In this document: positions 19,611 through 19,763 of the stretch, in pieces | How the letters are laid out: each line of letters begins with the position of its first letter | Numbering within the stretch: position 1 is the first letter of the stretch | Assembly: GCA_018238625.1 (NCBI GenBank) | Contig: JABCSY010000058.1 | Location: 1 to 24,568 of the forward strand | Source of the DNA: Promethearchaeota archaeon | Lineage (GTDB): Archaea > Asgardarchaeota > Lokiarchaeia > Sigyniarchaeales > SOKP01 | Direction: 5' to 3' | Length of the DNA: 24,568 bases | Made by a program: the position numbers and the translations under genes | Notes under the pieces: model-generated | What the model was told of the DNA's origin: nothing | Seen by the model: only the letters and a program-made list of their open reading frames with translations | Databases searched by the model: none

Positions 19611-19763
19611 TTATTTTGCTCCTAAGGCTTCTTTGACCTTTTCTAATTCTTCCATCCGTTTCTTTTTCTCTTCTTCACGTTTTCTGAGGTCTTCTTCGTC
19701 AACCTTTTGGAGCGAAACACCTTTTTTGATTTCTTCTTTTAGTTCTTTACCTACTGGCGTCAT
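19611..19763 (-). CDS. 50-aa microprotein with WH2-like actin-binding motif (missed by ORF track)
   Basis: Manual translation: MTPVGKELKEEIKKGVSLQKVDEEDLRKREEEKKKRMEELEKVKEALGAK, then tandem TAA TAA. Co-oriented with its neighbours. GAA/AAA-rich codon usage matches the other genes. Confidence 0.8.
   Translation of the reverse strand: MTPVGKELKEEIKKGVSLQKVDEEDLRKREEEKKKRMEELEKVKEALGAK

Follow-up and report, generated by a model that had tools for sequence, protein, structure and literature searches.

Introduction

The WH2 domain (PF02205), seen on actin in N-WASP, WIP and MIM (PDB 3m3n, 2vcp, 2a41, 2d1k), is the reference system for the small archaeal protein described here. Beta-thymosins (PF01290), of about 43 aa, are stand-alone peptides that sequester monomers of actin, and proteins with tandem WH2 or beta-thymosin repeats, among them Spire, Cordon-bleu and Ciboulot, occur in eukaryotes and bacterial pathogens. 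According to PMC9433394, PMC7444086 and bioRxiv 10.1101/2025.11.30.690169, two-domain gelsolins of Asgard archaea have a WH2-like linker motif (LVDV, LRRV, LKHV, LKDV) that contacts actin in crystal structures, and no other WH2-type motif has so far been described from Asgard archaea. A search of the openly accessible literature, main texts only, found no paper on a free-standing WH2/thymosin-like protein in Asgard archaea.

The window analysed here is the whole of a 24,568-nucleotide stretch of DNA from an Asgard archaeon (contig JABCSY010000058.1), and its minus strand encodes a 50-aa protein that can be compared with each of these systems. As in WH2 domains, a short predicted amphipathic helix is followed by a glycine three residues ahead of a leucine and by L-x-K-V in register, and remote members of the 50-aa family carry LKKV, one of them passing the Pfam cut-off. 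The differences from WH2 domains are that the Pfam model recognises neither the window protein nor its orthologues in the order, that a lysine takes the place of the second hydrophobic residue in the helix, and that the motif is followed by a conserved charged helix of 27 residues, which WH2 domains do not have. The family is archaeal and found in one order, and its likeness to WH2 is known here from sequence and structure prediction. Beta-thymosins are approached in size, in the stand-alone form and in the modelled order of N-terminal helix, LKKT-type segment and C-terminal helix, but the tail of the 50-aa protein is much longer and is predicted to be one continuous charged helix, and the Pfam Thymosin model gave no match to it at E≤10 (hmmscan, Pfam-A). 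Whereas the gelsolin linker consists of four residues inside a gelsolin fold, the 50-aa protein is free-standing, has its own helix and tail, and has no gelsolin domain.

The 50-aa gene and its parts

An ATG at 19763 and a TAA at 19613-19611 delimit, on the minus strand of the window, an ORF of 50 residues, exactly where and with the sequence that the sequence-only reading had given. The gene and its parts are as follows.

19611..19763, minus strand: coding sequence of the 50-aa protein, stop codon included, MTPVGKELKEEIKKGVSLQKVDEEDLRKREEEKKKRMEELEKVKEALGAK
19722..19754, minus strand: residues 4-14, short N-terminal amphipathic helix with hydrophobic positions 4, 8 and 12 (AlphaFold2 model; I12 invariant in the close family)
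19698..19721, minus strand: residues 15-22, G-V-S-L-Q-K-V-D, non-helical, LKKV/T-type motif (model, conservation, and alignment to N-WASP and MIM WH2 chains)
19617..19697, minus strand: residues 23-49, long charged helix (REEEKKKR) with an amphipathic end, M37, L40, V43 and L47 (model and conservation)
19574..19606, minus strand: two T-runs directly past the stop codon (T6 at 19601-19606, T7 at 19574-19580), putative archaeal-type terminator
19764..19830, minus strand: A/T-rich upstream region with putative TATA-like elements, judged from the upstream sequences of 19 orthologues

T-rich tracts past the stop codon are found in most of the 19 orthologous loci, and most of the 19 orthologues have a putative ribosome-binding site of GAGGT/GGAG type 5-10 nt 5' of the start, weak in the window. 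The T-runs and the upstream ribosome-binding sites suggest that the 50-aa gene is a separate transcription unit. The gene had been described as hidden under two spurious plus-strand ORFs. This is so for 19633..19851 (72 aa, F/S-rich), which lies antisense over it as a shadow, but 19763..19969 (68 aa) shares just one base with it. The antisense frame is open in 19/19 orthologues because GAA, AAA and AAG codons have stop-free complements, and it is therefore no rival gene.

Conservation, annotation and expression

The 50-aa ORF is a genuine, single-copy gene under purifying selection. Each of the 24 sampled genomes of the same genus has one intact copy (E≤2.6e-8), and in the genome of the window the family profile matches the 50-aa ORF alone at E<0.1 among 38,860 frames. 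Across 171 pairs of 19 orthologues, a set that leaves out locus L019, which the motif filter missed, pS is 0.538, pN is 0.076 and pN/pS is 0.14. A word-indexed search of 5.8 billion proteins retrieved 204 homologues at E≤1 from 207 candidates, and the 120 matches listed are 49-51 aa long and 76-100% identical. Two profiles were used, A1 from 28 close members and A3 from 36 diverse stand-alone members. In a full HMMER pass over 1.84 billion representatives A1 gave 52 matches at E≤0.001, with identity down to about 45%. A search with A3 for longer relatives in the 5.8-billion-protein collection gave one 481-aa protein among 8000 scored candidates, which is weak evidence.

Homologues have already been called in NCBI, JGI and ENA records, several of them under the name "hypothetical protein" in NCBI and JGI records of Lokiarchaeota, Promethearchaeota and similarly labelled MAGs. 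The gene is thus not generally missed by gene callers, and its description as unannotated does not apply in general. A metatranscriptome library contains a single contig, X18 (468 nt, 20 differences), that spans 19312-19745, covering the small gene and the start of the adjacent pelota gene. Since contigs cannot show transcription, X18 hints at expression weakly at best; two others, X19 and X20, are probably DNA, not RNA.

Distribution

Profile A3 matches 74 of the 301 genomes of the phylum at E≤0.001. By family of the order, matches were obtained in 63 of 68 genomes of f1 and in all 7 of f2, and a single-protein search in the same order found the protein in 4/4 genomes of f4 (E 1.2e-8 to 7e-6) and in the one genome of f3 (E 0.016). 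The other 225 genomes yielded three marginal A3 matches (E 4e-4 to 1e-3), in ORFs of 65, 267 and 744 aa. The 50-aa family is restricted to a single order of Asgard archaea, and searches of other Asgard lineages did not find it; the expectation of an Asgard-wide feature was not borne out. Other Asgard lineages do have actin, and the restriction of the family to one order counts against a WH2 reading.

Resemblance to WH2 domains and beta-thymosins

The conservation of the I..G..LxKV positions in relatives, which had been proposed as a check, was confirmed. Without exception the 28 close members have I12, G15, V16, L18 and V21, and at least 90% of them K13, K14, K20 and D22; across the 36 diverse members L18 is invariant, G15 is kept in at least 90%, and L8, I12, K20 and V21 in at least 70%. 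As in LKKT/V-type motifs, I12-x5-L18-Q-K20-V21 places an extended segment six residues past the last hydrophobic residue of the helix, and the canonical LKKV is present in the distant members P0137, P0139, P0140, P0142, P0149 and P0170. An AlphaFold2 monomer model calculated on A3 has a helix at 4-14, a non-helical segment at 15-22 and a helix at 23-49 (mean pLDDT 88.4, pTM 0.45), two confident helices that say nothing on whether the free peptide is disordered, as WH2 domains are before they fold on actin. In the model this is the WH2/beta-thymosin layout, with conserved hydrophobic positions 4, 8 and 12 in an amphipathic first helix, the part that in WH2 domains spans 2-3 turns and supplies the hydrophobic residues for the subdomain 1/3 cleft of actin, and the helix/LKKT-type/helix order of a stand-alone beta-thymosin is predicted within 50 aa. 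The genus form has one of the two adjacent helix hydrophobics; repeat and profilin-fused forms have both. A strict WH2-type pattern, written with the ORF in view, occurs once in the 2,704,270 six-frame residues of this genome, at the 50-aa ORF, and a looser one occurs 13 times. The motif in the 50-aa ORF is above chance.

Searches of 177,635 PDB sequences with A1 and A3 place the N-WASP tandem-WH2 chain 3m3n_W first (E 2.7e-4 and 4.6e-4, respectively) and also list N-WASP 2vcp_D and MIM 2d1k_C, aligned in the register first proposed. The E-value of 3m3n_W adds up three domains that are each weak, at 6-9 bits, and the single-domain MIM match of 13.7 bits compares with 13-14 bits for the unrelated aEF-1beta in the same searches, whose matches include de novo designed TIM barrels as well. 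In the repeat protein described below, the same helix-Gly-hydrophobic element draws a weak match to a designed PPR protein. Since the per-domain scores of WH2 are no better than those of unrelated folds, the match may reflect a generic helix-Gly-hydrophobic cap.

The Pfam WH2 model, which the sequence-only reading had named as the score to obtain, has no match to the window protein at E≤10, whether the protein was scanned with hmmscan or the genome was searched in six frames. None of the 151 genomes of the order has a match above the 23.1-bit cut-off, and the four matches at E≤0.1 all lie in ORFs other than the 50-aa gene. The remote member P0150, which shares 56% identity with the window protein in an ungapped alignment of 39 residues, scores 23.7 bits, just above the cut-off, and as a query in this genome it matches the 50-aa ORF only. 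Ten members were scanned; P0139, P0137 and P0170 reach 16.5, 14.1 and 13.4 bits, and no Pfam WH2 match is listed for the other six. The WH2-type interpretation stands in part: L..EIKKGV.LQKV is conserved in register and the profiles point to WH2/beta-thymosin, but the Pfam WH2 model does not match.

Pfam lists over the 36 members contain WH2 in 3/36, DUF3006 in 12/36 and the H-NS N-terminal domain in 7/36, the latter two always below their cut-offs. DUF3006 (PF11213) is the most frequent sub-threshold match (best E 4.1e-4, residues 6-47), but its 32.3-bit cut-off is never reached and only the C-terminal 41 model positions are matched. It was rejected as an identity, being sub-threshold, of no known function and explaining nothing. 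Resemblances to RPEL, SAP and PPR were likewise dropped, with no Pfam match listed and hydrophobic positions that do not fit. NCBIfam gave nothing meaningful for the 50-aa protein, the repeat protein, P0139 or one profilin fusion, and Foldseek of the monomer model against the PDB gave a single meaningless match (E 8.2).

From the 1.84 billion representatives A1 also retrieves P0160 (E 2.7e-5). This protein of 169 aa has three or four WH2-like repeats with LK[KR]T followed by DKS[AS]P, and its PDB matches are N-WASP and WIP WH2 chains only. Its homologues are only three proteins; P0160, P0174 and P0175 are on metagenome contigs of at most 774 nt. An Atlas feature search returned, after three unnamed clusters, one in which 52% of the members carry Thymosin PF01290, with a score of 0.87, a lead only, as this is below the reliability line of the tool. 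The 50-aa protein resembles WH2 in motif, register and predicted layout; homology to WH2 is not established.

The charged tail

REEEKKKR.EEL is the most conserved stretch of the family and the core matched by the profile in fusion proteins. Across the 36 diverse members R36 and E39 are invariant, and E32, K33, K35 and L40 are conserved in at least 90%. With E30-32 four residues ahead of K34, K35 and R36 the tail is single-alpha-helix-like, as first noted; the idea that it is a mere spacer fares less well, given that this stretch is the best conserved of the family and the core of the fused module. Judged by this conservation the tail is not a passive spacer, and any mechanism must assign it a role.

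The module in tandem arrays and fusions

The whole 45-aa module is also present in multi-module and fusion proteins. In sister family f2, proteins of 479-497 aa have 9-11 consecutive modules with a period of about 46 aa. Tandem-array proteins are P0124, P0173 and the following.

L021, 1312..2748, minus strand: tandem-array protein
L022, 1197..2672, minus strand: tandem-array protein
L023, 1318..2790, plus strand: tandem-array protein

Several array modules carry the full LL..I-x5-LKKV, and in this and in holding many consecutive modules the arrays are like tandem-WH2/beta-thymosin-repeat proteins. They differ from these in the period of about 46 aa, in the charged helix of each unit, and in having no match to Pfam, NCBIfam or, in usable form, the Atlas; a profile of the array proteins run against the PDB gave only a designed PPR solenoid (E 0.6). 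The array model, calculated from four sequences only, consists of long helices broken at L.K[VI] sites and has no compact fold (pLDDT 62.8, pTM 0.22).

Four proteins, P0144, P0153, L065 and L066, have an N-terminal domain that matches Pfam Profilin (4/4, E 2.5e-4 to 8.5e-3, all below the cut-off). The PDB matches of P0144 are 5yed/5yee, 5zzb and 5zza only, and 5zzb is a Loki profilin according to PMC8410842. The profilin-fused modules have the two adjacent hydrophobics typical of WH2 helices. Judged from these domain matches, the profilin fusions are the only contextual link of the module to actin.

Several genera of family f1 have fusions of the module with GTPase, LRR or RHH domains. Proteins of the type RHH-module or module-RHH are L073-L076, L078 and P0167, and LRR-module proteins include P0161. 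Those with coordinates are listed here.

L067, 1189..2139, minus strand: Ras/Roc/Arf-type GTPase, module and RHH
L070, 863..1933, plus strand: Ras/Roc/Arf-type GTPase, module and RHH
L068, 1227..2285, minus strand: Ras/Roc/Arf-type GTPase, module and RHH
L064, 461..1510, plus strand: LRR and module

The modules fused to RHH, GTPase or LRR have N-terminal insertions and Pro in place of V, and keep only the charged helix. The canonical-spacing pattern hh..h-x5-L.[KRH][VITLP] was counted 14 times across the 25 repeat and fusion proteins, versus 1.2 times in residue shuffles. The RHH fusions would fit an actin-sensing regulator or an unrelated adaptor alike.

Genomic neighbourhood

The 50-aa gene lies between a RimI-like GNAT gene (19872..20318) and pelota (18397..19470), the neighbours that had been assigned to it. 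Pelota is well above the cut-off of TIGR00111 (241.6 bits, cut-off 177.65), and the GNAT is RimI-like with rimI, TIGR01575, as its best NCBIfam model at 77.4 bits, below the cut-off of 86.4. Family models were applied to the window's own neighbours, and neighbours outside the window were judged by ORF size. On this basis, 19/20 loci of the genus have a GNAT-size ORF (146-149 aa) on one side and 20/20 a pelota-size ORF (357-378 aa) on the other. The order GNAT, small gene, pelota is also found in G030 of family f2; in family f4 (G029, G033) the neighbour is different, a P-loop-motif ORF about 290 aa long.

Elsewhere in the window, radical-SAM genes flank the locus (17341..18378 and 20318..21460) and CutA1 is at 23032..23346. 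Five ORFs in the window, 210-576 aa long, lack a Pfam family at E≤1e-5.

14126..15856, minus strand: ORF with no Pfam family at E≤1e-5
16622..17254, minus strand: ORF with no Pfam family at E≤1e-5
21457..22164, minus strand: ORF with no Pfam family at E≤1e-5
22181..23008, minus strand: ORF with no Pfam family at E≤1e-5
23479..24111, plus strand: ORF with no Pfam family at E≤1e-5

Possible functions of the 50-aa protein

We tentatively favour, at somewhat short of even confidence, the reading that the 50-aa protein is a WH2/beta-thymosin-like ligand of monomeric Lokiactin, a proposal in which we infer every step that involves actin. L18, K20 and V21 would lie along the actin surface, like an LKKT/V motif. 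The REEEKKKR.EEL helix would reach toward the pointed face like the C-helix of beta-thymosin, or would recruit a second partner. The stand-alone protein would buffer or deliver actin monomers, and the proteins of 9-11 modules would bind several actin subunits, as nucleators or filament-side binders.

A lineage-specific adaptor or oligomerisation module with no actin role is a serious possibility, although we think it rather doubtful. The REEEKKKR.EEL..V..AL helix would then bind another partner or self-associate, and the WH2 resemblance would be coincidental. Such coincidence agrees poorly with the position-specific conservation of L8, I12, G15, L18, K20 and V21 in the stand-alone form and with the canonical LL..I-x5-LKKV versions in repeat proteins. 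In favour of an adaptor, the tail with its invariant R36 and E39 and its E32, K33, K35 and L40 at 90% or more is the best conserved part. The RHH, Ras/Roc GTPase and LRR fusions, matched mainly at positions 11-47 and with the WH2-type spacing lost, point the same way, as do the negative Pfam WH2 results and the equal per-domain scores of unrelated folds; the fusions with profilin-like domains and the score of P0150 above the Pfam WH2 cut-off argue for actin instead.

Two further explanations concern the locus itself. Gene order kept in 19/20 loci of the genus and in G030, the confirmed pelota and RimI-like identities, and the single RNA-library contig that covers the small gene and the start of pelota would suit a translation- or ribosome-associated small protein tied functionally to pelota and the RimI-like acetyltransferase. 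We regard this role as improbable: the gene has its own putative T-run terminator and upstream elements, its neighbour differs in family f4, the net charge of the protein read from its sequence is about +1, unlike basic ribosome binders, and the fusions of the module include no translation-related domain. That the ORF is not a gene at all but a chance open frame in A/T-rich intergenic DNA is highly improbable. The ORF is short, low-complexity K/E-rich frames easily stay open, and the antisense frame is open too, but a pN/pS of 0.14 at a pS of 0.54, the 204 homologues at E≤1 with a fixed length among the 120 matches listed, the 52 matches that A1 found at E≤0.001 in 1.84 billion representatives, with identities as low as about 45%, and the occurrence of the module inside long proteins refute it in practice.

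If the 50-aa protein does bind Lokiactin, it would be a new and easily synthesised regulator, and its multi-module and fusion relatives would be opened for study of how regulated actin dynamics arose. The confinement of the family to one order would then raise the question of convergence versus loss of detectable homology with eukaryotic WH2. A broader proposal, which we consider unlikely, is that Lokiarchaeia own a combinatorial family of WH2/beta-thymosin-like actin-binding modules. It could comprise the free 50-aa monomer binder, arrays of 9-11 modules able to nucleate or measure filaments, and fusions to profilin, Ras/Roc GTPase, LRR and RHH DNA-binding domains. By analogy with eukaryotic RPEL motifs, the RHH fusions could tie transcription to the pool of free actin. 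Such a family, if real, would join profilins and gelsolins as a third class of actin regulators in archaea.

Actin genes of the genome

The genome has six actin-family genes, on contigs C138, C16, C47, C76, C74 and C77 (L028-L033). Three of the six are Lokiactin paralogues with a mutual identity of 82-84%, and the main Lokiactin is 98-100% identical across 20 genomes of the same genus. Two Lokiactin paralogues are followed, about 50 nt downstream and on the same strand, by a gene for a protein of 413-429 aa.

L029, 156..1445, minus strand: gene downstream of Lokiactin (G000, contig C16)
L030, 179..1420, minus strand: gene downstream of Lokiactin (G000, contig C47)

The N-terminus of the 413-429-aa proteins is Loki-profilin-like (PDB 5zzb, E 8.2e-6; 5yed, E 2.8e-5), and their central part is a winged helix of the TrmB type (Pfam, E 7e-11 and 1e-10). 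Their domain composition makes an actin-sensing transcription factor possible.
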